A stretch of DNA of 64,000 nucleotides, taken from sequence record OR995200.1; one strand, given 5' to 3'. The translations under genes and the position numbers were made by a program. How positions within the stretch are numbered: the stretch's first letter is position 1; each line of letters opens with the position of its first letter. Source of the DNA: Escherichia phage JY01. Below, piece by piece: positions 1-64,000 of the stretch. The notes beneath the pieces were generated by a model. The model did not search any database. It was not told the origin of the DNA and saw only the letters and a program-made list of their open reading frames with translations.

Positions 1-2
1 CC

Positions 3-113
3 GCAATCCATGGCATCCTCAACATATTGAATCAATTCATAGAACTGTTCACGAGTCAATTGATTGACTTTATCTACGCAACGACGATCATCTCTTTTTC
101 GCATTGAACTCAT
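3..113 (-). CDS. Partial ORF (N-terminal 37 codons), continues past window start; product unknown
   Basis: ATG at 111-113 on minus strand, frame open to window edge; directly downstream of gene 42. Confidence 0.3.
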   Translation of the reverse strand, partial: MSSMRKRDDRRCVDKVNQLTREQFYELIQYVEDAMDC

Positions 114-364
114 ACGAATAGTAGTATCATCGTCAATCATCCAGATTCGTTGACCTGCATATATATCGGTAATTGCTTTACGAGTACCGGCAATTCCGTT
201 TACATCATCAGGAATAGTTATAATTTTAGCTCTAGACCCATAAGCGTCATGATAAGCTTTTTCTTCATGTTCACGCACTACAATATGGGGTTCATAATCA
301 GTCGGAAACATATCAAGGGCAGAAACTGCCCCGACACGCTGATAACTTGGAATTACGAATTGAA

Positions 365-1105
365 TCATTTCCACTCACCGTTATAATCTTTTTTCACAAT
401 ATGAGTTTCGCCAGTATTCCACCAATGATCAACCAAGTAAAAATGACGAGAATATACATGAAGACTTCCAACATTCCATATAATAGAACCTGCTTTATAC
501 TGACGAGTTGAATCGCCGGCATTCAAATCAGATACTAATTTATCTAATACGTATTTTTGCCATGCATAATCATTACGGAATCCGAAGACCACGTCATTTG
601 AGCGCATGCTTACTACTGCATTGACTTTCTTATCACGAATCAGATACTGTACGGTATTCGTACACATGAAATCTGACATACCATCTTTATTGTAGTCAAA
701 TTGCATGGATGGACGAGTATAAATCATGATACCACGTCGAGAATCAGGATTTTGACCAAGTTCAGCTAAACACATATCATACTGGGCATAGTTATCTTCT
801 GACCAGATAGCCCAACCATAATTCGAGTTAATTTCGCCTTTAGAAGATGCTACCTGCTGCCAAATCTTTGGTGTTTCACCTGGAATATCTTTAACAAACA
901 AGCTCTTAGATTTATACCATTCAAGTTCGCGCTGAATGTATTCATCATTAAGAGCGCCAAAAATAAACGGTTCATCTGCTACAAATGATGCGCCAATAAT
1001 TTCAATAGTTTTAACACCAGTTTTATCAACTACGAAATCTTTTTCTTTTAATGCAAGCCCCAAATGAAGACGGATTTCTTCAACTGTCATAGAGTCACTA
1101 ATCAT
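365..1105 (-). CDS. 42: dCMP hydroxymethylase
   Basis: 246 aa ORF; sequence recalled as near-identical to T4 gp42; thymidylate-synthase-like fold family. Confidence 0.85.
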   Translation of the reverse strand: MISDSMTVEEIRLHLGLALKEKDFVVDKTGVKTIEIIGASFVADEPFIFGALNDEYIQRELEWYKSKSLFVKDIPGETPKIWQQVASSKGEINSNYGWAIWSEDNYAQYDMCLAELGQNPDSRRGIMIYTRPSMQFDYNKDGMSDFMCTNTVQYLIRDKKVNAVVSMRSNDVVFGFRNDYAWQKYVLDKLVSDLNAGDSTRQYKAGSIIWNVGSLHVYSRHFYLVDHWWNTGETHIVKKDYNGEWK

Positions 1106-1258
1106 TTAAACCTCAATTGATACATTCATATTTAACTTGTAACAGTAATAAGCTCCAACCTAAAATAATAGTTGGAATCATAAGAGGAACCGTTACACTA
1201 TAGTATATACTTATTATAATCATCAAGATTAAAAGCAACACTGTTATAATTTTGCTTT

Positions 1259-1510
1259 TCATTCCTTCTCTCTGATGATAATTACCTGATTTGGTTGTGC
1301 AGACTTTTTAGTTTCACCCGCAATTGACCAAATAAATGTAATAAACCAACCAATAATTGACCAGTTAAACAGTAAAGATGTGAAAAAGATTCCTACTGTC
1401 GATTTTGACCCACGCATCAAAGCAATAAACCATGGAAGCATGTATATAATAATAGCCAACACACCTGAAACTAAAACCATAAAAATTGAACCTGCTACTA
1501 AAGTTTCCAT
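1259..1510 (-). CDS. imm: Immunity (superinfection exclusion) membrane protein
   Basis: 83 aa, two hydrophobic helices, sits between 42 and 43 as in T4. Confidence 0.6.
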   Translation of the reverse strand: METLVAGSIFMVLVSGVLAIIIYMLPWFIALMRGSKSTVGIFFTSLLFNWSIIGWFITFIWSIAGETKKSAQPNQVIIIREKE

Positions 1511-1516
1511 ATTTCC

Positions 1517-1907: not shown

Positions 1908-2144
1908 TCAAATGCAAGTAGTAATTACTCCAGTAGTGCTTATACAGGTATTACCCATTTGCACACCTAAAGATCCATTTGTATTCACATGAAGATTATC
2001 ATCAATTTTAACTGATATTTTACCATTAGTGTGAATAACGGTGCTAGATTTAATCACAGGTTGAGTATCATTTTCAACACTAACAAATGGAACTGCTACT
2101 AATGCAACTAAACAAACTGCTAAACATCCCATAACAATTTTCAT
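1908..2144 (-). CDS. Small secreted/membrane protein
   Basis: Start set at ATG 2142-2144 preceded by GGAG; hydrophobic N-terminus; directly downstream of early-promoter cassette. Confidence 0.5.
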   Translation of the reverse strand: MKIVMGCLAVCLVALVAVPFVSVENDTQPVIKSSTVIHTNGKISVKIDDNLHVNTNGSLGVQMGNTCISTTGVITTCI

Positions 2145-2327: not shown

Positions 2328-5024
2328 TCAGCCAAACAGGAAGTCTAACGAAGCTTTTTCTTCATAGTCCATACCAGCCGATTCACACATGCCTGCAAGC
2401 GGTTTAACAAACGATTTTTGGAACAAAGTTGAGTAGTCAATCCAAGACAGTACGTCAGAACGAATTTCTTTTGGAAGTTCTGTACCCGACGGCCAAGCAA
2501 TGCATTTGTCACCAAATGGATTTCCTTCACGCAATGGAAGAACCATTACTTTATTTCCATCCAAAATTGGAGCTACACCTAAACCGCTAACAGCTCGACG
2601 ATAAGTTAGCACACCACGAATATGGAACGGACATTTAAATCCTGGCCAACCTTTATCATCATATTTCGCTATATCGTTCGCAGTTTTTACTTCAGCAATA
2701 ACTTTATAGTCAAGTTGACGATATTCTTTCTCGAAGTTCTTGTAATATTCTTGGACAGACTCTTCACCTTCCTGAAGAATACGACGGATACTTTCTTCAA
2801 GAGCTTCTTGGACCGCTTTAGGCGTTGAACTTTGCTGAGTTTCCATACCCATGATTTTTAGATGCGGTTCAGCAAATCGCTTATCTTCCATATCATAAAC
2901 GTTCAGAGCATAACGTTTTTTCGCTTTCCAAAATCCACCAACACCCTTTGAACCAAGTGGAGGGCAAGAAATAGCTTCACGGTCCATATGCATCAGATGC
3001 TCGCGGTTATTCATATAATCACATAACTCACGATATGCAACATCAATCATAGGTTCCATCTTTTTCTTACCGAACTGATTCATGAATTCAACTAAATCGT
3101 TCTGCTCTTTGAATCGGTCAAGACCAACTTTTTCAATAACTTTATCTACACAAACATATACCGAATCAGTATCACCTGCTGCGATGAAATCTTCGCCATT
3201 AGTTCCACATACTTTATTCAGATACTCATTAATTTTACGAGCAATCCACTGAATACCGACTTGACCAAAAATTGTAATAGCAGTAGCATTTCGCAAATCA
3301 TAGTAGCGGAAATGAATATTACCAAGAGCACCGTAAAGGCTGTTAATAAGAATTTTACGGTTCAGCTGATTTGTATTAGCAAGTGTAGCCGCTTTTTCAC
3401 ATTCTTCAATCAAACTATTGAGAACAGATTCAGTATAATTCGATAGTTCATTTAAGAAATCATCACTGAACTTAACATATCGTTTAACTTCAGGTTTAGT
3501 TGAACAAGACCCTGCGCCTTTCATAATAATCTTTTTAATAGCTTCGGCATTCATTTCTTCAGCGAACATTTTCTTTTTCCAATCTTTACGCTGGAAAAAT
3601 ACTTTAGCGATTTCCTTTGGAATGATACCTTCTTGATGCTTATCATACATCCATCCATTCGGAGAACAAGAATATTCATCACTCGGTTTAGGAGCTGTTC
3701 CTGCGATATATTCATGAATTGGATGAACTTTAAACTGACCACGAATAGTCTCAGGACTAATGTTAACCTGACGAATAATGCTCGGATACAGAGACGTCAA
3801 GTCAAAACTCATAATATATCGACGAGCAATTGGTTTAGGTTCAAATACAAATGCACCCGGAAAACTTTGTTTAACGTGCGAACCTTGTTGAGGAATAACC
3901 TTATGTTCACCTTTCAATGAGTTAAAAATAATAGCATCCCAAGTTTTAATAGGACTCATTACACCAGAAAAAGGCATTTTAGCATAATAAGACATACTTA
4001 AAACTAGATCGATAAACCCGCGAATTTTATCAATTGCTTGAACTGATTCTACGTCAATGATGTTATAACTAATGTATCGTTGATGATTAGTCTCACGAAG
4101 TTTATTAATAGGACCGTCGTATGGTAATTTACCTTTTTTGGTTTCATGCTGAGCAACTGATTCCAAAGAGAATGACGGCAAATTAGTAAATGCGAATTTC
4201 TTATACAAATCTAAATAATCAAGAATAGATACGCCATCAATAGAATAAATTTCTTTGCTACCGTACATATTTTGGATAAGTTTAGATTTTACTCGACCGA
4301 TTGGAGAGAAGCGTTTCATACTGCGTTCACCAAGAACCATTTTAACACGATTCATGATATACGGAACGTCAAATCCCTCAATATTCCAACCAGTAAAAAT
4401 AGCAGGTCGTTTCTGTTCCCAAAGATTAATATATTCCATGAGCATATCACGCTCATTATCGAATGGCATATAAATTACTCGGTCAAGAATTTCTTGAGGA
4501 ACTTCATCACCACCTTCACAGTCAAGCTTAGCAGCTAACTTTGCATCCCATTTTGATACTGAACCGTACATTGAATTCAAAAGGTCGAAAACATAAAAAC
4601 GATCATCAATTGAATCGTAATGAGTGATAGCATCAATTTCATATTCAGCTTTCATTGGGTCAGGAAATTTATCACCAGTAACCTCAATGTCACAGTTAGC
4701 TACACGAACAAATTTTCGGTCATAAACAATTTCTGAACCATATGTATCACTGATATAAGCGAGTTTAAAATCGTTCATACCGAGAGCTTCGAGACCGATG
4801 TCTTCCATTCGTTTCATCCAATCTCGAGCATCTTTCATTGATGGAAATTTTTGAGGAGCACAGTTTTTACCATAGATGTCTTTGTACTTTGACTCTTCCT
4901 TACAATGTCTAAACATAGTTGGAAGATATTCTACTTCACGAGTACGTTCCTTTCCGTTTTCATCAATATAACGTTCAACAATGTTATTTCCGACTGTTTC
5001 AATAGAGATATAAAATTCTTTCAT
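2328..5024 (-). CDS. 43: DNA polymerase (family B, with 3-5 exonuclease)
   Basis: 898 aa ORF; sequence matches T4 gp43 as recalled, including the DTDS polymerase motif. Confidence 0.95.
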   Translation of the reverse strand: MKEFYISIETVGNNIVERYIDENGKERTREVEYLPTMFRHCKEESKYKDIYGKNCAPQKFPSMKDARDWMKRMEDIGLEALGMNDFKLAYISDTYGSEIVYDRKFVRVANCDIEVTGDKFPDPMKAEYEIDAITHYDSIDDRFYVFDLLNSMYGSVSKWDAKLAAKLDCEGGDEVPQEILDRVIYMPFDNERDMLMEYINLWEQKRPAIFTGWNIEGFDVPYIMNRVKMVLGERSMKRFSPIGRVKSKLIQNMYGSKEIYSIDGVSILDYLDLYKKFAFTNLPSFSLESVAQHETKKGKLPYDGPINKLRETNHQRYISYNIIDVESVQAIDKIRGFIDLVLSMSYYAKMPFSGVMSPIKTWDAIIFNSLKGEHKVIPQQGSHVKQSFPGAFVFEPKPIARRYIMSFDLTSLYPSIIRQVNISPETIRGQFKVHPIHEYIAGTAPKPSDEYSCSPNGWMYDKHQEGIIPKEIAKVFFQRKDWKKKMFAEEMNAEAIKKIIMKGAGSCSTKPEVKRYVKFSDDFLNELSNYTESVLNSLIEECEKAATLANTNQLNRKILINSLYGALGNIHFRYYDLRNATAITIFGQVGIQWIARKINEYLNKVCGTNGEDFIAAGDTDSVYVCVDKVIEKVGLDRFKEQNDLVEFMNQFGKKKMEPMIDVAYRELCDYMNNREHLMHMDREAISCPPLGSKGVGGFWKAKKRYALNVYDMEDKRFAEPHLKIMGMETQQSSTPKAVQEALEESIRRILQEGEESVQEYYKNFEKEYRQLDYKVIAEVKTANDIAKYDDKGWPGFKCPFHIRGVLTYRRAVSGLGVAPILDGNKVMVLPLREGNPFGDKCIAWPSGTELPKEIRSDVLSWIDYSTLFQKSFVKPLAGMCESAGMDYEEKASLDFLFG

Positions 5025-5104: not shown

Positions 5105-5341
5105 TTAAATTTCTATTGTACGACGCGATATAACGGACTTGCCATCTTTATTTGTGGTTTTGATAATCGCATGAAATACGCGTTGGCGTGGGTAAACTAA
5201 TCGTTGGAATTCTTTTTGGAATTCTATTTGTTTATCTTCCGGGAGGTCAAAAACTAGTTGGGTAGAAGACAGACCATATGTTTGTTTTAGATTTTCGAAT
5301 ATTAGAAAAGCTTCGGTAAACTGAATCTCTGATTGTGTCAT
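5105..5341 (-). CDS. Hypothetical protein
   Basis: ORF between regA and 43; start set at internal ATG with AAGG upstream. Confidence 0.4.
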   Translation of the reverse strand: MTQSEIQFTEAFLIFENLKQTYGLSSTQLVFDLPEDKQIEFQKEFQRLVYPRQRVFHAIIKTTNKDGKSVISRRTIEI

Positions 5342-11987: not shown

Positions 11988-12006
11988 TAAAGGGCCGAAG
12001 CCCTTT
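11988..12006 (-). terminator. UUCG-tetraloop RNA hairpin at a-gt stop
   Basis: RNA-sense AAAGGGC-UUCG-GCCCUUU overlapping stop codon. Confidence 0.45.
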
Positions 12007-13207
12007 ATTTTGTAATAATGTCAAACTGTTCTTTAAAACAGAAGCTTGAATCTTGATGCTGATACAAAAATTCATAAGCTTTTTCACGTTCGCGGTCATA
12101 AAGAGCTCGGTCAGATGACAGTTCTTTAATACGTTCAAATGTTGATTCCATATCATTTTCATCAAACCAAATGATACCGCTATCATGCGAGGTCAAAGGA
12201 GTATTATCAACACGGAATTTTAAATTTTCGCCAGTAGATTTCCAAAATACCGGAATTGTTCCACATGCACCAAGCTCGAGATGAGTATATTCTAAAGAAC
12301 GTTGTAGATATTTTTTATCCAACTTACTCAACTGATAACCAAAACCGGATTTACTCATACGTTCAAGCATTTCGCTATTTACATAACGGTCAAGAATTTG
12401 CGTTGGCAAATTAGGAGCAATTTTAATTTGGTCTACTTGATGAAGACGATAATACTCGTATGGAATTCCTTTTTCTTTAATAGGAATGAACGCTGGAGAA
12501 CGTTCCAGACCTTCCATAATAGTACTTAGTCCTGCAGGTTTAAGATGTTTTTCATGAAAATCAAACATCTGATAAAAACCTTTCCATGTAGTCGTACGAC
12601 CAATCCAACGGTTAACATTCATGTTAACTTCAGAAACATCTTTCCAGTAGGTTGACCGAACCTTCGCAATATCCATAGGAGGCTGAAAGTTATATACTGT
12701 CGGTGCTTCTTCAATATCATCAAACAGAGAAACAGTTTCTGGATACCATTCTTTCATCAGAACTTTATTAAAATCGCCATTATCAGAATGGCTAAAAATA
12801 ACATCAGCTCGACGAACAGTTTCTTCTAATCCCAAATTTCGACGCAAAGAAAGAGAAGAATGGTCATGCTGATAAACTACAACACGAACAGAAGGTTTAA
12901 TGTTATCAATAATTTTTTTATAGTTATTAATAGTGTCTTCTTCAACCGAAGTAGCAGGAACTGAATTGATAATTAGAATATCACAATCATTTACCAGCTT
13001 AAGTGTTTTATCGTATTCTTTTGCCAATAAAACCGGAATTGAAAATGATTTATAATCATGCGCACAATTACGAGTAAATGATTTATCTTTAGCATAAACC
13101 AAAGTTACTTCATGACCATTTTTAATAAACCAATCACGTTGCTCAAGAGAAAATTTAGTTACACCACAACCTTCAAGACCTCGAGCCATAAAAATACATA
13201 CTTTCAT
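12005..13207 (-). CDS. a-gt: DNA alpha-glucosyltransferase
   Basis: 400 aa, position downstream of 47 region and length match T4 a-gt. Confidence 0.8.
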   Translation of the reverse strand: MKVCIFMARGLEGCGVTKFSLEQRDWFIKNGHEVTLVYAKDKSFTRNCAHDYKSFSIPVLLAKEYDKTLKLVNDCDILIINSVPATSVEEDTINNYKKIIDNIKPSVRVVVYQHDHSSLSLRRNLGLEETVRRADVIFSHSDNGDFNKVLMKEWYPETVSLFDDIEEAPTVYNFQPPMDIAKVRSTYWKDVSEVNMNVNRWIGRTTTWKGFYQMFDFHEKHLKPAGLSTIMEGLERSPAFIPIKEKGIPYEYYRLHQVDQIKIAPNLPTQILDRYVNSEMLERMSKSGFGYQLSKLDKKYLQRSLEYTHLELGACGTIPVFWKSTGENLKFRVDNTPLTSHDSGIIWFDENDMESTFERIKELSSDRALYDREREKAYEFLYQHQDSSFCFKEQFDIITK

Positions 13208-13231
13208 TTAATATCCTCTTTGTTTTGGTTT

Positions 13232-46913: not shown

Positions 46914-46914
46914 G

Positions 46915-48780: not shown

Positions 48781-49550
<770 letters not shown>

Positions 49551-49551
<1 letters not shown>

Positions 49552-52286: not shown

Positions 52287-52877
52287 ATGCTCTTTACATT
52301 TTTTGATCCGATTGAATATGCGGCCAAAACGGTGAATAAAAACGCGCCGACTATTCCTATGACAGATATTTTTAGAAACTATAAAGACTATTTTAAACGC
52401 GCTCTTGCGGGATACCGCTTACGTACTTATTATATCAAAGGTTCACCACGTCCGGAAGAATTAGCAAATACTATATATGGAAATCCACAGCTGTATTGGG
52501 TTTTATTGATGTGTAATGATAATTATGATCCATATTATGGATGGATTACTTCACAAGAAGCTGCTTATCAAGCATCTATACAAAAATACAAAAATGTGGG
52601 TGGAGACCAAATAGTATATCATGTGAATGAGAACGGTGAAAAATTTTATAATTTAATATCATACGATGATAATCCATATGTTTGGTATGATAAAGGCGAT
52701 AAAGCTAGAAAATATCCTCAATATGAAGGAGCACTTGCTGCGGTCGATACGTATGAAGCGGTTGTTCTTGAAAATGAAAAACTTCGTCAAATAAAAATAA
52801 TAGCAAAATCAGACATTAATTCATTTATGAACGACCTTATACGTATAATGGAGAAATCTTATGGAAATGATAAGTAA
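52287..52877 (+). CDS. 53: Baseplate wedge protein
   Basis: 196 aa, first plus-strand late gene, precedes gene 5. Confidence 0.85.
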   Translation: MLFTFFDPIEYAAKTVNKNAPTIPMTDIFRNYKDYFKRALAGYRLRTYYIKGSPRPEELANTIYGNPQLYWVLLMCNDNYDPYYGWITSQEAAYQASIQKYKNVGGDQIVYHVNENGEKFYNLISYDDNPYVWYDKGDKARKYPQYEGALAAVDTYEAVVLENEKLRQIKIIAKSDINSFMNDLIRIMEKSYGNDK

Positions 52878-54588
52878 TAACCTTAATTGGTTTGTTGGTG
52901 TTGTTGAAGATAGAATGGACCCATTAAAATTAGGTCGTGTTCGTGTTCGTGTTGTTGGTCTGCATCCACCTCAAAGAGCACAAGGTGATGTAATGGGTAT
53001 TCCAACTGAAAAATTACCATGGATGTCAGTTATTCAACCTATAACTTCTGCAGCAATGTCTGGAATTGGAGGCTCCGTTACTGGACCGGTAGAAGGAACT
53101 AGAGTTTATGGTCATTTTTTAGACAAATGGAAAACTAACGGAATTGTCCTTGGTACATATGGCGGAATAGTTCGCGAAAAACCTAATAGACTTGAAGGAT
53201 TTTCTGACCCAACTGGACAGTATCCTAGACGTCTAGGAAATGATACTAACGTATTAAACCAAGGCGGAGAAGTAGGATATGATTCGTCTTCTAATATTAT
53301 CCAAGATAGCAATCTAGACACTGCGATAAATCCTGATGATAGACCATTATCAGAAATTCCAACTGATGATAATCCAAATATGTCAATGGCTGAAATGCTT
53401 CGCCGCGATGAAGGATTAAGACTAAAAGTTTATTGGGATACCGAAGGATATCCGACAATTGGTATTGGTCATCTTATCATGAAGCAGCCAGTTCGTGATA
53501 TGGCCCAAATTAATAAAGTTTTATCAAAACAGGTTGGTCGTGAAATTACCGGAAATCCAGGTTCTATTACAATGGAAGAAGCGGTAACTTTATTTGAACG
53601 TGATTTAGCTGATATGCAACGTGACATTAAATCACATTCTAAAGTTGGCCCAGTTTGGCAAGCAGTTAATCGTTCTCGTCAAATGGCATTAGAAAATATG
53701 GCATTTCAGATGGGTGTTGGCGGTGTAGCTAAATTTAACACAATGTTAACTGCTATGTTAGCAGGAGATTGGGAAAAAGCATATAAAGCCGGTCGTGATT
53801 CATTGTGGTATCAACAAACAAAAGGCCGTGCATCCCGTGTTACCATGATTATTCTTACGGGGAATTTGGAATCATATGGTGTTGAAGTGAAAACTCCAGC
53901 TAGGTCTTTATCGGCAATGGCTGCTACTGTAGCAAAGTCTTCTGACCCGGCTGACCCTCCTATTCCAAATGACTCGAGAATTTTATTCAAAGAACCAGTT
54001 TCTTCATATAAAGGTGAATATCCTTATGTACATACAATGGAAACTGAAAGCGGTCATATTCAGGAATTTGATGATACCCCTGGGCAAGAACGATATAGAT
54101 TAGTTCATCCAACTGGAACTTATGAAGAAGTATCACCGTCAGGAAGAAGAACAAGAAAAACTGTCGATAATTTGTATGATATAACCAACGCTGATGGTAA
54201 TTTTTTGGTAGCCGGCGATAAAAAGACTAACGTCGGTGGATCAGAAATTTATTACAACATGGATAATCGTCTTCACCAAATAGATGGAAGCAATACAATA
54301 TTTGTACGTGGCGATGAAACTAAGACGGTTGAAGGTAATGGAACTATCCTAGTTAAAGGTAATGTTACTATTGTAGTTGAAGGTAATGCTGACATTACAG
54401 TTAAAGGAGATGCTACCACTTTAGTTGAAGGAAATCAGACTAATACAGTAAATGGAAATCTTTCTTGGAAAGTTGCTGGGACAGTTGATTGGGACGTTGG
54501 TGGTGATTGGACAGAAAAAATGGCATCTATGAGTTCTATTTCATCTGGTCAATACACAATTGATGGATCGAGGATTGACATTGGCTAA
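52861..54588 (+). CDS. 5: Baseplate central spike with lysozyme domain
   Basis: 575 aa; internal lysozyme domain MAEMLRRDEGLRLKVYWDTEGYPTIGIGHLI paralogous to gene e; C-terminal VEGN-type beta-helix repeats. Confidence 0.95.
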   Translation: MEMISNNLNWFVGVVEDRMDPLKLGRVRVRVVGLHPPQRAQGDVMGIPTEKLPWMSVIQPITSAAMSGIGGSVTGPVEGTRVYGHFLDKWKTNGIVLGTYGGIVREKPNRLEGFSDPTGQYPRRLGNDTNVLNQGGEVGYDSSSNIIQDSNLDTAINPDDRPLSEIPTDDNPNMSMAEMLRRDEGLRLKVYWDTEGYPTIGIGHLIMKQPVRDMAQINKVLSKQVGREITGNPGSITMEEAVTLFERDLADMQRDIKSHSKVGPVWQAVNRSRQMALENMAFQMGVGGVAKFNTMLTAMLAGDWEKAYKAGRDSLWYQQTKGRASRVTMIILTGNLESYGVEVKTPARSLSAMAATVAKSSDPADPPIPNDSRILFKEPVSSYKGEYPYVHTMETESGHIQEFDDTPGQERYRLVHPTGTYEEVSPSGRRTRKTVDNLYDITNADGNFLVAGDKKTNVGGSEIYYNMDNRLHQIDGSNTIFVRGDETKTVEGNGTILVKGNVTIVVEGNADITVKGDATTLVEGNQTNTVNGNLSWKVAGTVDWDVGGDWTEKMASMSSISSGQYTIDGSRIDIG

Positions 54589-54622
54589 TATACTTCCAAT
54601 GAGCGCTGATTTAGGAGAATCC

Positions 54623-55117
54623 ATGGAAGGTTCTTCTATCGACGTCACCTTTACCGCTCAATTAGAAACAGGTGAAACGTTAGTATCTATAAATATAACT
54701 AGTTACGAAGAAACTCCTGGGGTTTTAGTAGAAGAAAATCGTTTATATGGAACGTATGAATCTGTATTTGGATTTGGAAATGATGCGTTGAAATATCGTT
54801 TAGATAATGAATTTAAAACCGCTGCTTCATGGGAAGACCTTCCAACTGATTCTAATACTCAGTTATATTTATGGAAAGCTCCTCAAAACCTCCAGAAGAC
54901 ATTCACTTACGAAGTAACATTAATATATGACTATCAAGAACAAAGTGAATCTGGAGGTTCTGGCAGTAATTCTAGGTCATCTTCTGATACTACTGAACCG
55001 ACAGATCCTCCTGCTCCAGTAAGAAAAACTCTCGTTAAAAATTATACTAAAACTATAGTTGGAAATTGGAGTCGTTGGGCTAATAAGCTGAGAAGCTATG
55101 TGTATGAGAGGCCATAA
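54623..55117 (+). CDS. Hypothetical late protein (5.1 position)
   Basis: Start set at ATG with AGGAG upstream; Ser/Gly-rich segment. Confidence 0.5.
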
Positions 55118-55411
55118 ATGTCAGGATTAAGTTATGATAAGTGTGTTACTGCTGGCCATGAAGCGTGGCCTCCAACAGTTGTGAATGCTACACAAAGTAA
55201 AGTATTCACTGGAGGAATTGCTGTTCTAGTAGCAGGCGATCCAATTACAGAACATACAGAAATTAAAAAGCCATATGAAACACATGGCGGAGTGACACAA
55301 CCTAGAACTTCTAAGGTATATGTCACTGGAAAGAAAGCTGTTCAAATGGCTGATCCAATATCATGCGGTGATACTGTGGCTCAGGCATCATCTAAAGTAT
55401 TCATTAAATAG
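55118..55411 (+). CDS. 5.4: PAAR-repeat spike tip protein
   Basis: 97 aa, matches T4 gp5.4 length and position. Confidence 0.8.
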
Positions 55412-55419
55412 GATTTAAA

Positions 55420-57402
55420 ATGGCAAATACCCCTGTAAATTATCAATTAACAAGAACAGCAAATGCTATTCCCGAGATATTCGTCGGGGGTACATTTGCT
55501 GAAATAAAACAAAACCTCATTGAATGGCTTAATGGCCAAAATGAATTTTTGGATTATGATTTTGAAGGCTCAAGATTAAACGTTCTATGTGACCTTTTGG
55601 CTTATAATACATTATACATTCAGCAGTTTGGTAATGCTGCCGTGTATGAAAGCTTTATGCGTACTGCTAACTTACGTAGTTCAGTAGTTCAAGCTGCACA
55701 AGATAATGGATATTTACCTACTTCAAAATCAGCTGCTCAAACTGAAATTATGCTAACTTGTACAGACGCATTGAATAGGAATTACATCACAATTCCTCGC
55801 GGTACTCGCTTTTTAGCATATGCAAAGGATACTTCTGTTAATCCTTATAACTTTGTATCTACCGAAGATGTTATTGCTATTCGTGATAAAAATAACCAGT
55901 ATTTTCCACGTTTAAAATTAGCCCAAGGACGTATAGTAAGAACTGAAATCATTTATGATAAATTAACACCTATTATCATTTATGACAAAAACATAGATAG
56001 AAACCAAGTTAAACTATACGTTGATGGAGCAGAATGGATTAACTGGACAAGAAAGTCAATGGTTCATGCTGGTTCTACATCAACAATTTACTACATGCGT
56101 GAAACTATTGATGGAAATACTGAATTTTATTTTGGTGAAGGTGAGATTTCCGTTAATGCGGCAGAAGGAGCATTGACTGCTAATTATATTGGAGGTCTTA
56201 AACCTACCCAGAATTCTACGATTGTTATTGAGTACATCAGTACTAACGGTGCAGATGCGAATGGTGCAGTCGGATTTTCATACGCAGATACATTAACAAA
56301 TATAACTGTCATCAATATTAACGAAAATCCAAATGATGACCCAGATTTTGTCGGAGCAGATGGCGGCGGTGATCCAGAAGATATTGAGCGTATTCGCGAA
56401 TTAGGTACTATTAAACGCGAAACCCAGCAACGCTGCGTAACCGCAACTGATTATGATACATTTGTCTCAGAAAGATTTGGTTCTATTATTCAAGCTGTTC
56501 AGACTTTCACTGATTCTACTAAACCTGGGTATGCATTTATTGCTGCTAAACCTAAATCAGGATTGTATTTAACTACTGTACAGCGTGAAGATATTAAAAA
56601 TTATCTCAAAGATTATAATTTAGCGCCTATTACACCGTCAATTATTTCTCCTAATTATCTTTTTATTAAGACTAATTTAAAAGTCACATATGCTTTAAAT
56701 AAACTACAAGAATCCGAACAGTGGCTTGAAGGTCAAATAATTGATAAAATTGATCGTTATTATACAGAAGATGTAGAAATTTTTAACTCATCTTTTGCCA
56801 AGTCTAAGATGTTAACTTACGTAGATGATGCAGATCATTCTATCATTGGTTCATCAGCAACTATTCAAATTGTTCGTGAAGTACAAAACTTCTATAAAAC
56901 GCCTGAAGCAGGTATTAAATACAATAATCAAATAAAAGATCGTTCTATGGAATCTAATACGTTTTCATTTAATTCTGGACGAAAGGTTGTAAATCCTGAT
57001 ACTGGTTTAGAAGAAGATGTATTATATGACGTTCGTATAGTATCAACAGACCGAGATTCTAAAGGAATTGGTAAAGTTATTATTGGTCCATTTGCTTCTG
57101 GCGATGTTACAGAAAATGAAAACATTCAGCCGTATACAGGCAACGATTTTAACAAATTAATAAACTCCACCGGACGTGACAAATACTATGTTATCGGTGA
57201 AATAAATTATCCAGCCGATACAATTTATTGGAATATCGCTAAAATTAATTTAACATCTGAAAAATTTGAAGTTCAGACTATTGAATTATATTCTGACCCA
57301 ACCGATGATGTTATCTTTACTCGCGATGGTTCACTGATTGTATTTGAAAATGACTTACGTCCACAATACTTAACTATCGATTTGGAGCCTATATCACAAT
57401 GA
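55420..57402 (+). CDS. 6: Baseplate wedge protein
   Basis: 660 aa, matches T4 gp6 length and order. Confidence 0.9.
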   Translation: MANTPVNYQLTRTANAIPEIFVGGTFAEIKQNLIEWLNGQNEFLDYDFEGSRLNVLCDLLAYNTLYIQQFGNAAVYESFMRTANLRSSVVQAAQDNGYLPTSKSAAQTEIMLTCTDALNRNYITIPRGTRFLAYAKDTSVNPYNFVSTEDVIAIRDKNNQYFPRLKLAQGRIVRTEIIYDKLTPIIIYDKNIDRNQVKLYVDGAEWINWTRKSMVHAGSTSTIYYMRETIDGNTEFYFGEGEISVNAAEGALTANYIGGLKPTQNSTIVIEYISTNGADANGAVGFSYADTLTNITVININENPNDDPDFVGADGGGDPEDIERIRELGTIKRETQQRCVTATDYDTFVSERFGSIIQAVQTFTDSTKPGYAFIAAKPKSGLYLTTVQREDIKNYLKDYNLAPITPSIISPNYLFIKTNLKVTYALNKLQESEQWLEGQIIDKIDRYYTEDVEIFNSSFAKSKMLTYVDDADHSIIGSSATIQIVREVQNFYKTPEAGIKYNNQIKDRSMESNTFSFNSGRKVVNPDTGLEEDVLYDVRIVSTDRDSKGIGKVIIGPFASGDVTENENIQPYTGNDFNKLINSTGRDKYYVIGEINYPADTIYWNIAKINLTSEKFEVQTIELYSDPTDDVIFTRDGSLIVFENDLRPQYLTIDLEPISQ

Positions 57403-60400
57403 CAGTAAAAGCGCCTTCAGTCACTAGTCTCAGAATTTCCAAGTTATCCGCTAATCAGGTGCAAGTACGCTGGGATGACGTTGGTGCTAATTTCTACTAC
57501 TTTGTAGAAATCGCTGAGACAAAATCAAACTCGGGAGAAAATCTCCCGAGTAATCAATATCGTTGGATTAATTTAGGATATACAGCAAATAATAGTTTCT
57601 TTTTTGATGATGCTGATCCACTGACATCATATGTTATTAGAGTAGCTACAGCTGCGCAAGATTTTGAGCAGTCTGATTGGATTTATACAGAAGAGTTTGA
57701 AACTTTTGCTACGAATGCTTACACATTTCAAAATATGATTGAAATGCAATTAGCTAATAAATTCATTCAGGAAAAGTTCACTCTTAATAATTCTAATTAT
57801 GTCAATTTCAATAATGACACAATAATGGCTGCGTTGATGAATGAATCATTTCAGTTCAGCCCATCGTATGCTGATGTCTCATCAATCAGTAATTTTATTA
57901 TTGGTGAAAACGAGTATCATGAAATACAAGGTTCTATTCAGCAAGTATGTAAGGATATTAACCGAGCTTATTTGATGGAATCAGAAGGGATTCTATATCT
58001 TTTTGAGCGTTATCAACCCGTAGTTAAAGTATCCAATGATAAAGGACAAACCTGGAAAGCTGTAAAGCTCTTCAATGACCGTGTAGGATATCCTTTATCT
58101 AAGACTGTATATTACCAATCTGCAAACACAACATACGTTCTAGGATACGATAAGATTTTCTATGGCCGTAAATCGACTGACGTTAGATGGTCAGCAGATG
58201 ATGTCAGATTCAGTTCACAGGATATAACATTTGCTAAATTAGGAGACCAACTTCATTTAGGATTCGATGTTGAAATCTTCGCTACTTATGCGACTTTACC
58301 AGCGAATGTATACCGTATAGCTGAAGCCATTACTTGTACGGATGATTATATCTATGTTGTTGCCAGAGATAAAGTTAGATATATAAAAACGAGTAATGCA
58401 CCTATAGATTCTGACCCGTTATCACCAACATACTCGGAAAGACTTTTTGAACCTGATACAATGACTATAACTGGAAATCCTAAAGCTGTATGCTATAAAA
58501 TGGATTCTATTGGTGATAAAGTTTTTGCTCTTATTATTGGTGAAGTTGAAACATTAAATGCTAATCCTAGAACATCAAAAATAATTGATTCCGCTGATAA
58601 AGGAATATATGTTTTAAATCATGATGAAAAAACATGGAAAAGAGTTTTTGGTAATACCGAAGAAGAAAGAAGACGTATTCAACCCGGATATGCGAATATG
58701 TCAACTGATGGTAAATTAGTTTCTCTGTCTTCGAGTAATTTTAAATTTTTAAGTGATAACGTTGTTAATGACCCTGAAACTGCTGTAAAATACCAGTTAA
58801 TCGGTGCTGTTAAATATGAATTTCCTCGCGAATGGTTAGCTGATAAACATTATCATATGATGGCGTTTATAGCGGATGAAAAATCTGATTGGGAGACTTT
58901 TACTCCTCAACCGATGAAATACTACGCAGAACCGTTCTTTAATTGGTCTAAAAAATCTAACACTCGATGTTGGATAAACAACTCTGATAAAGCTGTTGTA
59001 GTTTATGCAGATTTGAAATACACCAAAGTTATTGAAAATATTCCAGAAACGTCACCAGATAGATTAGTGCATGAATACTGGGATGATGGCGATTGCACTA
59101 TAGTAATGCCAAATGTTAAATTCACCGGATTTAAAAAATACGCATCAGGAATGCTTTTCTACAAATCTTCTGGCGAAATAATTTCTTATTATGATTTTAA
59201 CTATCGTGTGAGAGATACAGTAGAAATTATTTGGAAGCCAACTGAAGTATTTTTAAAAGCATTTTTACAAAACCAAGAGCGCGAAACTCCTTGGTCACCA
59301 GAAGAAGAACGTGGATTAGCTGACCCTGATTTAAGACCATTGATTGGCACAATGATGCCTGATTCTTATTTGTTACAAGATTCTAATTTTGAGGCATTTT
59401 GTGAAGCATATATTCAATATCTTTCTGACGGATATGGAACTCAGTATAACAATTTACGAAATTTAATTCGTAACCAATATCCACGAGAAGAGCATGCGTG
59501 GGAATATTTATGGTCAGAAATATATAAAAGAAACATTTATTTAAATGCTGACAAACGCGATGCTGTTGCAAGATTTTTTGAATCACGTAGCTATGATTTT
59601 TATTCTACTAAAGGAATTGAAGCATCATATAAATTTCTTTTTAAAGTTCTTTATAATGAAGAAGTTGAAATTGAAATTGAATCGGGAGCAGGTACTGAAT
59701 ATGATGTAATCATTCAATCTGATTCTCTTACAGAAGATTTAGTAGGACAAACTATCTATACTGCAACCGGAAGATGTAATGTTACTTATATAGAAAGAAG
59801 TTATTCTAATGGTAAATTGCAATGGACCGTGACTATACATAATCTTTTGGGGCGGTTAATAGCAGGACAAGAAGTTAAAGCAGAAAGACTTCCGGGCTTT
59901 GAAGGCGAAATTATTCGTGGGGTTAAAGGAAAAGATTTGCTTCAAAATAATATAGACTATATTAATAGAAGTAGATCATATTATGTAATGAAAATTAAAT
60001 CCAATTTACCTTCTTCTCGTTGGAAATCTGACGTTATTCGTTTTGTTCATCCAGTAGGATTTGGATTTATAGCAATTACCCTTTTAACGATGTTTATTAA
60101 TGTTGGTTTAACTCTTAAACACACAGAGACTATAATTAATAAATACAAAAACTATAAATGGGATTCTGGATTGCCTACTGAATATGCTGATAGAGTAGCT
60201 AAATTGACTCCAACTGGTGAAATTGAGCATGATTCGGTAACAGGCGAAGCAATTTATGAGCCTGGCCCAATGGCTGGTGTAGAATATCCTCTTCCTGATG
60301 ACTATAATGCTGAAAATAACAATTCAATATTTCAAGGTCAATTGCCGTCTGAACGACGTAAATTAATGAGTCCTTTATTTGATGCATCTGGAACAACATT

Positions 60401-60497
60401 TGCGCAATTTAGAGATTTAGTTAATAAACGTCTAAAAGATAATATAGGAAATCCAAGAGACCCTGAAAATCCAACACAGGTTAAAATAGATGAATGA
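57399..60497 (+). CDS. 7: Baseplate wedge protein
   Basis: 1032 aa, matches T4 gp7 length and order. Confidence 0.9.
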   Translation: MTVKAPSVTSLRISKLSANQVQVRWDDVGANFYYFVEIAETKSNSGENLPSNQYRWINLGYTANNSFFFDDADPLTSYVIRVATAAQDFEQSDWIYTEEFETFATNAYTFQNMIEMQLANKFIQEKFTLNNSNYVNFNNDTIMAALMNESFQFSPSYADVSSISNFIIGENEYHEIQGSIQQVCKDINRAYLMESEGILYLFERYQPVVKVSNDKGQTWKAVKLFNDRVGYPLSKTVYYQSANTTYVLGYDKIFYGRKSTDVRWSADDVRFSSQDITFAKLGDQLHLGFDVEIFATYATLPANVYRIAEAITCTDDYIYVVARDKVRYIKTSNAPIDSDPLSPTYSERLFEPDTMTITGNPKAVCYKMDSIGDKVFALIIGEVETLNANPRTSKIIDSADKGIYVLNHDEKTWKRVFGNTEEERRRIQPGYANMSTDGKLVSLSSSNFKFLSDNVVNDPETAVKYQLIGAVKYEFPREWLADKHYHMMAFIADEKSDWETFTPQPMKYYAEPFFNWSKKSNTRCWINNSDKAVVVYADLKYTKVIENIPETSPDRLVHEYWDDGDCTIVMPNVKFTGFKKYASGMLFYKSSGEIISYYDFNYRVRDTVEIIWKPTEVFLKAFLQNQERETPWSPEEERGLADPDLRPLIGTMMPDSYLLQDSNFEAFCEAYIQYLSDGYGTQYNNLRNLIRNQYPREEHAWEYLWSEIYKRNIYLNADKRDAVARFFESRSYDFYSTKGIEASYKFLFKVLYNEEVEIEIESGAGTEYDVIIQSDSLTEDLVGQTIYTATGRCNVTYIERSYSNGKLQWTVTIHNLLGRLIAGQEVKAERLPGFEGEIIRGVKGKDLLQNNIDYINRSRSYYVMKIKSNLPSSRWKSDVIRFVHPVGFGFIAITLLTMFINVGLTLKHTETIINKYKNYKWDSGLPTEYADRVAKLTPTGEIEHDSVTGEAIYEPGPMAGVEYPLPDDYNAENNNSIFQGQLPSERRKLMSPLFDASGTTFAQFRDLVNKRLKDNIGNPRDPENPTQVKIDE

Positions 60498-61494
60498 TTC
60501 AAGTGTTATCTATCGTGCGATAGTTACTTCAAAATTTAGAACAGAAAAAATGTTGAATTTTTATAATTCAATTGGAAGTGGTCCGGATAAAAACACTATC
60601 TTTATCACATTTGGAAGATCAGAACCGTGGTCATCAAATGAAAATGAGGTGGGCTTTGCCCCACCTTATCCTACCGATTCTGTATTAGGTGTAACTGACA
60701 TGTGGACGCATATGATGGGAACAGTAAAAGTTCTTCCATCAATGCTTGATGCAGTTATTCCTCGTCGAGATTGGGGAGATACTAGATATCCGGATCCATA
60801 CACATTTAGAATTAATGATATTGTAGTGTGTAACTCAGCTCCTTACAATGCTACTGAATCAGGCGCAGGCTGGTTAGTATATCGTTGTTTAGATGTTCCT
60901 GATACTGGAATGTGTTCAATCGCATCTTTAACTGATAAGGATGAATGCCTCAAATTAGGTGGAAAATGGACTCCTTCTGCTAGGTCAATGACTCCTCCTG
61001 AAGGCCGAGGAGATGCTGAAGGAACAATTGAACCTGGCGATGGATATGTATGGGAATATCTTTTTGAGATTCCGCCTGATGTATCTATAAATAGATGCAC
61101 GAATGAGTATATTGTAGTTCCTTGGCCTGAGGAATTAAAAGAAGACCCGGCTAGATGGGGGTATGAAGATAATCTCACTTGGCAGCAAGATGATTTTGGG
61201 TTAATTTATCGTGTTAAAGCTAATACAATTCGTTTTAAAGCATATTTAGATTCAGTTTATTTTCCTGAAGCTGCATTGCCGGGAAATAAAGGATTTAGAC
61301 AAATATCGATAATTACAAATCCTCTTGAAGCTAAAGTTCATCCAAATGATCCAAACGTTAAAGCTGAAAAGGATTATTATGATCCTGAAGATTTAATGAG
61401 GCATTCGGGTGAAATGATTTATATGGAAAATAGGCCACCTATTATTATGGCAATGGATCAGACAGAAGAAATCAATATTCTGTTTACATTTTAA
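60490..61494 (+). CDS. 8: Baseplate wedge protein
   Basis: 334 aa, matches T4 gp8. Confidence 0.9.
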   Translation: MNDSSVIYRAIVTSKFRTEKMLNFYNSIGSGPDKNTIFITFGRSEPWSSNENEVGFAPPYPTDSVLGVTDMWTHMMGTVKVLPSMLDAVIPRRDWGDTRYPDPYTFRINDIVVCNSAPYNATESGAGWLVYRCLDVPDTGMCSIASLTDKDECLKLGGKWTPSARSMTPPEGRGDAEGTIEPGDGYVWEYLFEIPPDVSINRCTNEYIVVPWPEELKEDPARWGYEDNLTWQQDDFGLIYRVKANTIRFKAYLDSVYFPEAALPGNKGFRQISIITNPLEAKVHPNDPNVKAEKDYYDPEDLMRHSGEMIYMENRPPIIMAMDQTEEINILFTF

Positions 61495-61499
61495 ATTAA

Positions 61500-61522
61500 G
61501 GGAGCCCATGGGCTCCCTTTTT
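61500..61522 (+). terminator. Rho-independent terminator after gene 8
   Basis: GGGAGCC-CATG-GGCTCCC hairpin followed by TTTTT. Confidence 0.65.
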
Positions 61523-61525
61523 CTT

Positions 61526-61533
61526 TATAAATA
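61526..61533 (+). promoter_or_regulatory. Late promoter (TATAAATA) for gene 9
   Basis: TATAAATA about 25 nt upstream of gene 9 ATG, just after terminator hairpin. Confidence 0.6.
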
Positions 61534-61557
61534 CTATAAACTCATAAGGAAACCGCT

Positions 61558-62424
61558 ATGTTCATTCAAGAACCAAAGAAATTGATTGATACCGGCGAAA
61601 TTGGTAACGCTTCTACTGGTGATATCTTATTCGACGGTGGTAATAAAATTAATAGTGATTTTAACGCAATTTATAATGCGTTTGGCGATCAACGTAAAAT
61701 GGCAGTAGCAAATGGCACCGGAGCAGATGGTCAAATTATCCATGCTACTGGGTATTATCAAAAACACTCTATTGCAGAGTATGCAACTCCAGTAAAAGTT
61801 GGCACTAGACATGATATTGATACTTCTACCGTAGGTGTTAAAGTTATCATTGAAAGAGGCGAACTTGGCGACTGCGTTGAATTTATTAACTCGAATGGAT
61901 CAATATCAGTTACTAATCCTTTAACGATTCAAGCTATTGATTCAATTAAAGGCGTTTCAGGTAATTTAGTAGTAACTAGTCCATATAGTAAAGTTACTTT
62001 ACGTTGTATTTCATCTGATAATTCTACGTCGGTTTGGAATTATTCTATTGAAAGTATGTTTGGGCAAAAGGAATCACCAGCTGAAGGTACATGGAATATT
62101 TCTACATCTGGATCAGTTGACATTCCACTATTTCATCGCACTGAATACAATATGGCTAAATTGCTAGTTACGTGCCAATCAGTAGATGGAAGAAAAATTA
62201 AAACAGCAGAAATAAATATTCTTGTGGATACTGTTAATTCAGAGGTCATTTCTTCTGAATATGCTGTCATGCGAGTTGGGAATGAAACCGAAGAAGACGA
62301 AATCGCTAATATTGCATTTAGTATTAAAGAAAATTACGTAACGGCGACTATAAGTTCTTCAACTGTCGGTATGAGAGCAGCAGTTAAAGTTATCGCTACG
62401 CAGAAAATCGGGGTGGCTCAATAA
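61558..62424 (+). CDS. 9: Baseplate wedge/tail fiber socket protein
   Basis: 288 aa, matches T4 gp9; late promoter upstream. Confidence 0.9.
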   Translation: MFIQEPKKLIDTGEIGNASTGDILFDGGNKINSDFNAIYNAFGDQRKMAVANGTGADGQIIHATGYYQKHSIAEYATPVKVGTRHDIDTSTVGVKVIIERGELGDCVEFINSNGSISVTNPLTIQAIDSIKGVSGNLVVTSPYSKVTLRCISSDNSTSVWNYSIESMFGQKESPAEGTWNISTSGSVDIPLFHRTEYNMAKLLVTCQSVDGRKIKTAEINILVDTVNSEVISSEYAVMRVGNETEEDEIANIAFSIKENYVTATISSSTVGMRAAVKVIATQKIGVAQ

Positions 62425-64000
62425 TGAAACAAAATATTAATATCGGTAATGTTGTAGATGATGGTACCGGTGACTACCTGCGTAAAGGTGGTATAAAAAT
62501 AAATGAAAACTTTGATGAGCTTTATTATGAACTCGGTGATGGTAATGTTCCATATTCAGCCGGTGCTTGGAAAACTTATAATGCTTCATCTGGGCAAACA
62601 TTAAAAGCTGAATGGGGAAAATCATACGCTATTAATACTTCGTCTGGAAGAGTAACACTGCAACTTCCTAAAGGAACTGTTAATGATTATAATAAAGTAA
62701 TTAGAGCTAGGGATGTATTTGCAACATGGAATGTTAATCCAGTTACTTTAGTAGCCGCTTCTGGTGATACTATCAAAGGATCATCGTCATCGGTTGAAAT
62801 TAACGTTCAATTTAGTGATTTAGAGCTAGTTTATTGCGCTCCGGGCCGTTGGGAATATGTCAAAAATAAACAAATTGACAAAATTATTAGTTCAGACATT
62901 AGCAATGTAGCTCGTAAAGAATTTTTAGTCGAAGTTCAAGGACAAACAGACTTTTTAGATATTTTCCGTGGAACTAGTTATAATGTTAATAACATCAGAG
63001 TAAAACACCGCGGTAATGAATTGTATTACGGCGATGTTTTTAGCGAAAATAGCGACTTTGGTTCTCCTGGAGAAAATGAAGGCGAATTAGTTCCTCTTGA
63101 TGGATTTAATATTCGATTAAGACAGCCTTGTAATATTGGTGACACTGTTCAAATTGAAACATTTATGGATGGTGTATCACAATGGAGAAGTTCATATACA
63201 AGACGCCAAATAAAAGTATTAGATTCAAAATTAACGTCAAAAACTTCTTTAGAAGGAAGTATTTACGTTACTGATTTATCAACAATGAAATCAATTCCAT
63301 TCTCTGCATTTGGATTAATTCCTGGAGAACCTATTAATCCTAATTCTCTTGAAGTTCGTTTTAATGGAATTTTACAACAACAAGCTGGAACAGCTGGATA
63401 TCCTCTGTTTTTGTGTGAAGGCGCTAGTTCAGATACGCAAGAAGGATGTATATCTCTTGGTGGTGAATGGAAAGAATCAAACACAGATTATTCTATAGAA
63501 TATGAAGATGGAAAACCTACCAGTCTTTTATTTGATAGAAAATTTGAATCAGGCGATATAATCGTTATAACGTGGTTCAATAATGATTTAGGAACTCTTT
63601 TAGAAAAAGATGACATCATTGAATTGACTGATGACCGTTATGTTAGCAAAGGATCATCTACCGAAGTTACTGGTGATGTAGCCTTAACTGATTTTGATAA
63701 AATCGGTTGGCCAAATGTTGAAAAAGTTGATTCTTATACTAGAACATATAATTCAATATCATCTATTTTCGATAGCATTTATCCCATTGGTTCAATTTAT
63801 GAAAATGCTATAAACCCAAATAATCCGGTGACTTATATGGGGTTTGGTTCATGGAAATTATTTGGTAAAGGACAAGTTTTAGTAGGATGGAATGATGATG
63901 TTACGGATCCAAACTTTGCATTAAATAACAATGATTTAGATTCTAGCGGAAATCCTTCGCATACTGCCGGTGGAACAGTTGGAACAACATCAGTGACACT
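62424..64000 (+). CDS. 10: Baseplate wedge/short tail fiber attachment protein, 3-prime truncated by window end
   Basis: ATG 62424-62426 overlapping gene 9 stop; frame open to window end. Confidence 0.8.
   Translation, partial: MKQNINIGNVVDDGTGDYLRKGGIKINENFDELYYELGDGNVPYSAGAWKTYNASSGQTLKAEWGKSYAINTSSGRVTLQLPKGTVNDYNKVIRARDVFATWNVNPVTLVAASGDTIKGSSSSVEINVQFSDLELVYCAPGRWEYVKNKQIDKIISSDISNVARKEFLVEVQGQTDFLDIFRGTSYNVNNIRVKHRGNELYYGDVFSENSDFGSPGENEGELVPLDGFNIRLRQPCNIGDTVQIETFMDGVSQWRSSYTRRQIKVLDSKLTSKTSLEGSIYVTDLSTMKSIPFSAFGLIPGEPINPNSLEVRFNGILQQQAGTAGYPLFLCEGASSDTQEGCISLGGEWKESNTDYSIEYEDGKPTSLLFDRKFESGDIIVITWFNNDLGTLLEKDDIIELTDDRYVSKGSSTEVTGDVALTDFDKIGWPNVEKVDSYTRTYNSISSIFDSIYPIGSIYENAINPNNPVTYMGFGSWKLFGKGQVLVGWNDDVTDPNFALNNNDLDSSGNPSHTAGGTVGTTSVT

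Follow-up and report, generated by a model that had tools for sequence, protein, structure and literature searches.

Hyperplastic regions lying between conserved cores have already been described for the T-even phages (PMC4122927), among which T4 encodes 15 endonucleases and no other T-even-like phage comes near that number (Edgell et al., PMC2988022). Promoter-early stem-loop (PeSL) cassettes have likewise been reported for T4-type phages (Arbiol 2010, PMC2839356; Comeau 2014, PMC4122927). The stretch analysed here, hereafter the window, comprises 64,000 nucleotides (nt) of Escherichia phage JY01 (record OR995200.1) and runs from the gene for a second hydroxymethylcytosine (HMC) glucosyltransferase through the replication, nrd, tk, e, tRNA and internal-protein regions up to baseplate gene 10. 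Our results very strongly indicate that it derives from a natural T-even phage (genus Tequatrovirus; Straboviridae, Tevenvirinae) of a sister lineage of T4 and not from a T4 derivative, and that the differences between the two reflect three known processes. The sites at which the window varies are those that the literature describes as plastic (PMC2988022, PMC4122927), and the pattern as a whole is already known, being that of a deposited phage with standard T-even genome variation.

The window was compared by local blastn with the T4 reference (NC_000866, 18-98 kb), and 110 T4 proteins from the part of T4 that corresponds to the window were searched against it by tblastn. A single collinear chain joins window positions 383-63,998 to T4 25,497-89,662 as blocks of 74-99% identity with short unmatched stretches between them, which sum to 88.1% coverage at 94.53% identity (blastn). 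Homologues were found by tblastn for 96 of the 110 proteins, all in T4 order and most at 95-100% identity, in keeping with the original prediction, made from the letters alone, of a T4-like segment with the gene order of T4. Divergence from T4 amounts to about 5.5% and is present in every 1-kb bin, core genes included, so that the further claim of a relative and not T4 also holds; identity lies clearly below the 100% that the prediction had named as its own refutation. The 14 T4 proteins that gave no tblastn match are b-gt, mobB, mobC, I-TevII, 49.2, 49.3, mobD, tk.1, ipIII, e.7, segB, ipI, segC and 5.3. T4 thus has these genes, the nrdD intron, the internal-protein genes ipI, ipII and ipIII and 8 tRNAs, whereas the window holds about 20 open reading frames (ORFs) and three tRNAs foreign to T4.

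The most coherent part of this difference concerns selfish elements. All six T4 mobile elements of the interval are missing from the window (mobB, mobC, the nrdD intron with its I-TevII, mobD, segB and segC); the original prediction had found no homing-endonuclease ORFs at the mobD and segB positions and had read nrdD as uninterrupted, all of which stands, but its count fell short of the real total by mobB, mobC and segC. Specifically, none of MobB, MobC, MobD, SegB, SegC and I-TevII had a tblastn match anywhere in the window (cut-off E<1e-3), a Pfam scan of 30 accessory or antisense ORFs, those at the mobD and segB positions among them, found no GIY-YIG or HNH domain, six long antisense and four further minus-strand ORFs had no Pfam match above the curated cut-off, and an Rfam scan of the whole window at gathering threshold returned only tRNAs and no group I intron. 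Table 1 of PMC2988022 lists where the endonuclease genes are inserted in T4, and the gaps coincide exactly with those sites. Since other T-even-like phages do not approach the endonuclease load of T4 (PMC2988022), a relative that lacks these elements represents the rule and is no surprise.

The junctions at the endonuclease sites are clean. The intergenic region between a-gt and a-gt.2 (13208..13273) is a vacant mobB site, T4 37,817-38,679 (mobB) being without counterpart. The nrdG gene (17550..18020, minus strand; 80.8% identity to T4 NrdG) begins with an ATG that overlaps the nrdD stop codon (ATGA), which leaves the mobC site vacant. Next to it, nrdD (18017..19834, minus) is a single unbroken ORF of 605 codons whose product is identical to spliced T4 NrdD at 601 of 605 residues, and the 1,033-nt intron of T4 (44,815-45,847) is absent at the point between 19296 and 19297. 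Over the 80 nt inspected, this intronless allele equals that of phage vB_EcoM-Sa45lw (hereafter Sa45lw) and shows two differences from T2, well 3' of the insertion site. Compared with the T4 exon junction, the homing-site region (19267-19328, minus) differs at positions -2, +8, +11, +14, +15, +17 and +20, at most one of these seven differences changing the protein, because NrdD differs at just four of its 605 residues. At the vacant segC/5.3 site (55115..55120, plus strand), the TAA stop of 5.1 is followed directly by the ATG of 5.4, and T4 80,217-80,775 is absent. The mobD position is taken by two genes (29949..30934, minus) encoding a 153-residue membrane protein and a 173-residue y05I-like paralogue of mobD.1 (phrog_944; Pfam T4_y05I_N, E=1.5e-33, and T4_y05I_C, E=1e-22); this block aligns to T2, T6 and Sa45lw, and two ORFs of the same sizes are annotated there in T6 and Sa45lw.

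To place the window among known genomes, it was searched by megablast in three thirds against 50,697 phage records. Hundreds of Tequatrovirus genomes cover 80-100% of each query, the best matches being ECML-363 and Sa45lw, and among these records none that spans a whole query exceeds about 98% identity. Sa45lw (MK977694) aligns to 99.2% of the window at 97.45% identity, compared with 93.1% at 95.10% for T2 (AP018813) and 89.1% at 94.55% for T6 (AP018814). The identity to Sa45lw is itself a mosaic: it reaches 99.9-100% over 43-50 kb, lies at 90-96% across much of 22-32 kb and is 87.6% in the region of ORF43.1, a small gene between gene 43 and regA. Three stretches of the window remain unmatched by Sa45lw, at 31486-31928, 20558-20609 (about 50 bp) and 21170-21180 (about 11 bp), of which the first and largest is present in T6.

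Sa45lw shares the layout of the window gene for gene, including 11 tRNAs, the internal proteins, ORF43.1 and a T2/T6-type glucosyltransferase, and its mobB, mobC, mobD, segB and intron sites are all vacant. It differs in that it carries a 49.2-like gene and, between 5.1 and 5.4, a homing endonuclease, and in that it lacks the 31486-31928 block. T2 and T6 share with the window the T2/T6-type second glucosyltransferase, the intronless nrdD and the two genes at the mobD position, and they too have extra tRNAs (Asn and Tyr in T2, Tyr in T6), with tRNA-His in neither. By contrast, ORF43.1 is found in neither of them (75% coverage in the 5-6 kb bin), and T6 further differs in that segB sits among its tRNA genes, a homing endonuclease separates nrdG from nrdD (cf. 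PMC13096335) and T6 is without the block from vs.3 to denV (37-40 kb, 0% coverage).

NCBI lists JY01 as an unclassified Tequatrovirus (taxid 3110419). Under the thresholds of the International Committee on Taxonomy of Viruses, a genus corresponds to at least 70% nucleotide similarity to the type phage, taken as coverage times identity, and a species to at least 95% across the length of the genome. The traits of the genus Tequatrovirus are found in the window: gene order is collinear, similarity to T4 is 0.881 x 94.53% = 83%, and the genes for HMC synthesis and glucosylation are there in the form of gene 42, a-gt and the N-terminal part of the second glucosyltransferase. For the species Tequatrovirus T4, the same 83%, measured on the window, stands against 95%, and the window is therefore not T4. 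Relative to Sa45lw, which is assigned to the species Tequatrovirus sf23, the figure is 0.992 x 97.45% = 96.7%, obtained on just 64 of about 167 kb.

Eight window proteins looked up by exact sequence were all present in public data. JY01 is the only named source of the exact lysozyme e (WRO06460.1), a-gt (WRO06395.1), gp7 (WRO06487.1) and NrdD (WRO06412.1) sequences; its nrdC.3 homologue is WRO06422.1, and the exact gp43 sequence occurs in Sa45lw and other phages besides JY01. Over the intervals counted, the JY01 accession numbers are spaced as the number of window genes between these proteins would predict, and the comparison with JY01 showed no differences. Stretches of 1.9-8.6 kb of the window recur at 99.93-100% identity in four independent public contigs (one from an ENA metagenome and three from SRA assemblies), which argues against assembly artefacts, and an SRA contig encoding the exact a-gt protein is a 97.4% relative. 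A full-text literature search for phage JY01 found no paper. As a side observation, E. coli OpgD glucan-biosynthesis proteins supply the representative and most of the listed members of the 90%-identity cluster that holds gp43, which looks like a database clustering artefact.

Gene-content differences from T4 all lie between conserved cores, as the original prediction had it for the accessory blocks; its view that their content is phage-specific, however, fell away. Every ORF in the T4-unmatched stretches was translated and scanned against Pfam and PHROGs, and all but one doubtful ORF of 61 codons (34827-35012) belong to PHROG or Pfam families already established for T4-like phages. In these alignments the content also appears not to be unique to the window, Sa45lw covering all of it but 31486-31928, which is in T6, and about 50 plus 11 bp. 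The blocks, all on the minus strand, begin with a 78-residue ORF between an early promoter and imm.1 (1908..2144; phrog_4189, E=4e-30), where T4 has no match for 1897-2131, and with ORF43.1 (5105..5341; Pfam Phage_RB18_ORF43, E=7e-32; phrog_3826), at which T4 positions 29,973 and 29,971 abut. A DUF7200 ORF unmatched in T4 lies between 55 and 55.1 (14780..15049; E=5e-33; phrog_1822), a DUF7279 ORF lies between 49 and pin (20347..20523; E=3e-17), and two small ORFs replace T4 49.2 and 49.3 (21168..21556; phrog_3402 and phrog_2112/DUF7205). Further along, two small ORFs at 31476..31929 (Pfam Phage_tudor, E=2e-40; DUF7438, E=1e-15) are found in T6 and not in T4, T2 or Sa45lw, a block of small ORFs replaces tk.1 and tk.2 (34476..35012; phrog_653/DUF7438 and phrog_3452; tk.2 52% identical), and a 172-residue ORF replaces T4 e.7 (43657..44175; phrog_6869, E=3e-108). 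On either side of the tRNA genes lie a 116-residue ORF beside tRNA-Arg, in the block that replaces T4 tRNA-Arg, segB and tRNA-Ile (45597..45947; phrog_3355, E=7e-52; without Pfam match), and a 171-residue ORF between the array and trna.2 (47074..47589; phrog_2290, E=2e-68), T4 having no match for 47093-47617. One of the pair replacing 49.2 and 49.3 (21168-21377, minus; 56-69 residues) falls in phrog_3402 at E=3e-39, a family that PHROGs labels "antitoxin from a toxin-antitoxin system". A toxin-antitoxin reading of this ORF was dropped, neither a partner gene nor other support having been found, and the name stands as a family label only.

Several of these cassettes are flanked by repeats. Nine early-promoter repeats in the window fit one consensus (an AT-rich stretch, GTTTAC, N17, TAYWAT, a leader, GGAG and ATG), and in at least one copy a terminator hairpin lies directly upstream (32919-32936); the same consensus has been reported as PeSL for the PST/T4 pair (PMC4122927). 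The insert 48528-48757, at the internal-protein gene 48523-48780, is bracketed by such an early-promoter repeat, D2 (48470-48538 and 48801-48869, 86% identical), and the insert 1897-2131 directly abuts an early promoter (repeat 2158-2231, upstream of the 78-residue ORF). At 20394-20557, the insert is bracketed by the 63-nt repeat D5 (20330-20392 and 20543-20605, 83% identical), and the DUF7279 ORF and pin share their last 15 residues, IRQYKRLH(R/Q)MFYNT; the common repeat and C-terminus imply that the inserted DUF7279 gene carries a duplicated 3' end of pin. The insert 44731-45255 is bracketed by D6, a 36-nt direct repeat formed by a terminator hairpin (92% identical), whose two copies are the strongest terminator-like hairpins in 32-50 kb and of which T4 has one copy (70,825-70,859). 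Like PeSL, the window has composite intergenic repeats of promoter, Shine-Dalgarno sequence and start codon, some of them next to or around indels; unlike PeSL, one insert contains a late promoter and sits between two copies of a terminator, and a second is bracketed by a duplicated gene 3' end. A role for the window repeats in recombination is presumed from these arrangements.

The three processes to which the differences from T4 are traced can be set out as follows. Six T4 selfish elements are absent, and from sequence a lineage that they never invaded would be indistinguishable from one that lost them. Whole-gene cassettes would have been gained, lost and replaced in the hyperplastic regions, in part by recombination at short regulatory sequences that occur in several copies (early promoters, terminators and duplicated gene ends), as in PeSL. 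Finally, homologous recombination among co-circulating T-even phages would have produced a mosaic of segments, each 87-100% identical to any one relative. Three considerations weigh against this account. The direction of gains and losses cannot be read from pairwise comparisons, and any direction given to them would be one that we infer; repeats are associated with only 4 of about 18 indel blocks; and the remaining 14 or so, which show no flanking repeat, may stem from homologous exchange in flanking genes or from illegitimate recombination, neither of which is visible in the sequence.

Other origins for the window can be envisioned. It might be T4 itself, or a laboratory T4 derivative from which the homing genes and the intron had been deleted, as its T4 gene order and 99-100% identity in regA, gp55, regB, vs.1, gp3 and 5.4 would allow; nucleotide identity of 94.5% with differences over all core genes, unrelated or divergent alleles for b-gt, ipI/II/III, nrdC.3 (61%), tk.4 (59%) and denV (79%), three extra tRNAs and phage-collection records no higher than about 97.6% over long stretches leave this idea with practically no probability, and it is refuted by the blastn chain, the tblastn identities and the binned divergence. 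A strain of T2 or T6 is hardly more credible, coverage times identity being 88.6% for T2 and 84.2% for T6, both under the 95% species level. The second glucosyltransferase, the mobD-position genes and tRNA-Tyr common to both phages, and the intronless nrdD allele of T2, are what such a strain would be expected to show, but T6 has segB in its tRNA array, an nrdG/nrdD endonuclease and no vs.3-denV block, and ORF43.1 is absent from T2 and T6 alike.

An artefact would offer a different explanation of the mosaic, with the window as a chimeric or mis-assembled contig of several T-even phages. Identity to Sa45lw does jump from 87.6% to 100% between neighbouring kilobases; at the block boundaries, however, no ORFs are broken, the indels are whole-gene cassettes with intact neighbours, the four independent public contigs match 1.9-8.6 kb at 99.93-100%, and the literature describes mosaicism of this kind as normal among T-even phages (PMC4122927), which makes a chimera very unlikely. 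Equally, we give almost no credence to the view of a new kind of T4-like phage with unseen accessory gene content. Five ORFs without a Pfam family or known function (16900-17211, 43657-44175, 44736-45209, 45597-45947 and 47074-47589) might be taken that way, but they have strong PHROG matches (E 1e-49 to 1e-108), Sa45lw covers 99.2% of the window by alignment and T6 the main remainder, and NCBI already lists the exact proteins under JY01 and numerous other phages. A natural T-even phage that is a sister of T4 therefore remains by far the best reading of the window.

Within this natural relative of T4, the cassette that is absent from T4 at 44696..45290 (minus) merits separate consideration. 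It consists of a terminator hairpin, a TATAAATA late-promoter motif, a 157-residue ORF (44736-45209) and a second copy of the terminator. T4 internal proteins bear an N-terminal capsid-targeting sequence like MKTYQEFIAE, ending in (L/I)-x-E, the cleavage motif of the gp21 protease. The ORF of the cassette starts MKSYTQFLNE and belongs to phrog_2280, whose function is unassigned, the public copies examined being annotated as hypothetical. A six-frame translation of the window contains the pattern MK[ST]Y..F..E at three places, all of them ORF starts (39713, 45209 and 48780), and the other two ORFs are internal head proteins. One is an IpIV-type protein starting MKTYQEFITE, which replaces ipII and ipIII (39240..39713, minus; phrog_3155 "internal virion protein", E=1e-101; DUF7412) and whose homologue is named IpIV in T2; the other is an 85-residue protein starting MKTYKEFATE, which replaces ipI (48523..48780, minus) and whose Sa45lw homologue is annotated IP5. 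The N-terminal motif and the upstream TATAAATA late-promoter motif are the grounds for a tentative reading, to which we give somewhat less than even weight, that the cassette may encode an unrecognised internal head protein that would be targeted to the capsid, trimmed by gp21 and injected with the DNA. BLASTP of the ORF product against T4 IPI, IPII and IPIII and the two other internal proteins of the window found only the short N-terminal motif in common; wider homology would not be expected among internal proteins, and its absence carries little weight either way. If the reading is true, the product would be a candidate anti-defence effector like T4 IPI*, and the duplicated terminator would mark 44696-45290 as a unit mobile between T-even genomes. 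Separately, ENA ERZ28649653 scaffold_497, which is 99.97% identical to the window, shows a 72-bp difference at window 39353-39426 (contig 6940-7245), its IpIV-type ORF having 101 residues as opposed to 157 in the window; a difference of this size in a near-identical contig implies that the internal-protein gene varies even within the lineage.

R96H is a classic destabilising substitution of T4 lysozyme, and it is carried naturally by the lysozyme of the window. Measured against canonical T4 lysozyme, the product of gene e (40199..40693, minus) carries A41V, R96H and T151A; against RefSeq T4, the differences are R12G, A41V, R96H, I137R and T151A. Residues G12 and R137 are those of canonical T4 lysozyme and are found in every relative examined, and it is the RefSeq T4 lysozyme (8503-8997 of the T4 reference stretch) that has R12 and I137, so that comparisons with the RefSeq protein over-count differences by two. 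The claim that lysozyme e departs from T4 at a few residues thus holds, with three real differences among the five. Codon 96 is CAC (His) in the window, CGC in T4, T6 and Sa45lw, and CGT in T2 and RB14. A sequencing error is excluded, since the four public contigs, at least 99.9% identical, carry the same codon 96. RB14 lysozyme differs from that of the window at residue 96 alone, and consequently there is no private second-site change; an identical protein is encoded by none of the 50,697 phage records. The best match in the PDB is 1L34, the R96H mutant, under which entry the substitution is listed as destabilising (PMC5472009). A natural carrier of R96H is of some interest for studies of T4 lysozyme stability. 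In Sa45lw, the lysozyme has R96 and E112.

The conserved cores are close to T4 throughout most of the window. On the minus strand, gene 42 for dCMP hydroxymethylase (365..1105) is 97.1% identical to T4 gp42, gene 43 for DNA polymerase (2328..5024; 898 residues) 99.6%, a-gt for alpha-glucosyltransferase (12005..13207) 91%, gene 55 for the late sigma factor (14147..14701) 100%, gene 49 for endonuclease VII (19831..20304) 99.4% and gene 57A for the tail-fibre chaperone (49309..49551) 98.8%. On the plus strand, baseplate genes 53 and 5, followed by 5.1 (52287..55117), are 99.0%, 99.5% and 95.7% identical, and 5.4 with wedge genes 6, 7, 8, 9 and 10 (55118..64000) reach 100%, 98.9%, 98.2%, 99.4%, 99.7% and 85.9%, gene 10 being truncated by the end of the window. 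By tblastn, regA is 100% and gp62, gp44 and gp45 are 99-100% identical to T4, whereas nrdC.3 (61%), tk.4 (59%), trna.3 (57%) and NrdG (81%) are divergent alleles, as is denV for endonuclease V (39723..40139, minus; 78.8% protein and 77.9% nucleotide identity). The expectation that core proteins match T4 in sequence is accordingly borne out at 98-100% by the polymerase, endonuclease VII, gp55, gp57A, gp53 and gp5 to gp9, but it overstates the match of DenV; the partial gp10 is also less similar.

At the start of the window, the N-terminal 120 codons of the T2/T6-type second glucosyltransferase (1..364, minus), cut by the window edge, replace T4 beta-gt; they match phrog_842 ("beta-glucosyl-HMC-alpha-glucosyltransferase", E=1.9e-39) and Pfam TAGT (E=5e-8), and positions 1-364 are aligned by T2, T6 and Sa45lw and not by T4. 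With an enzyme of this type, the DNA sugar pattern should resemble that of T2 and T6 and not that of T4; the original prediction had overlooked that this gene is of T2/T6 type. The tRNA array (45966..46987, minus; ARAGORN and Rfam) holds 11 genes, for Arg, His, Asn, Tyr, CAU (Met/Ile), Thr, Ser, Pro, Gly, Leu and Gln, compared with 8 in T4, those for His, Asn and Tyr being added, and it contains no endonuclease gene. In T2 an ORF stands where tRNA-Thr would be, and T6 has segB inside the array, segB being absent from that of the window. A permissive Rfam scan of 45200-47100, including the 114-nt spacer between tRNA-His and tRNA-Asn, gave only sub-threshold chance matches overlapping the tRNAs. 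Next to the array, homologues of the T4 stable RNAs C and D (45255..45597, minus) are 98% identical to T4 70,825-71,168 (rnaC and rnaD). During T6 infection, cleavage of tRNA-Tyr by the defence system Septu has been reported, as has amplification by SegB of the tRNA-Tyr gene that T6 carries (PMC13096335); the array of the window, which has tRNA-Tyr but is without segB, would lack this escape route from Septu.

Together, the glucosylation genes of T2/T6 type, the phage's own internal proteins and the 11 tRNAs bear on its sensitivity to host defences. Crosses with T4 that address homing or marker exclusion would find in this phage a clean natural recipient, all six T4 endonuclease target sites of the interval being vacant. 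For the family as a whole, the window provides a further example of the long-known T-even picture, in which conserved cores are separated by hyperplastic accessory regions and T4 is the outlier, overloaded with homing endonucleases.

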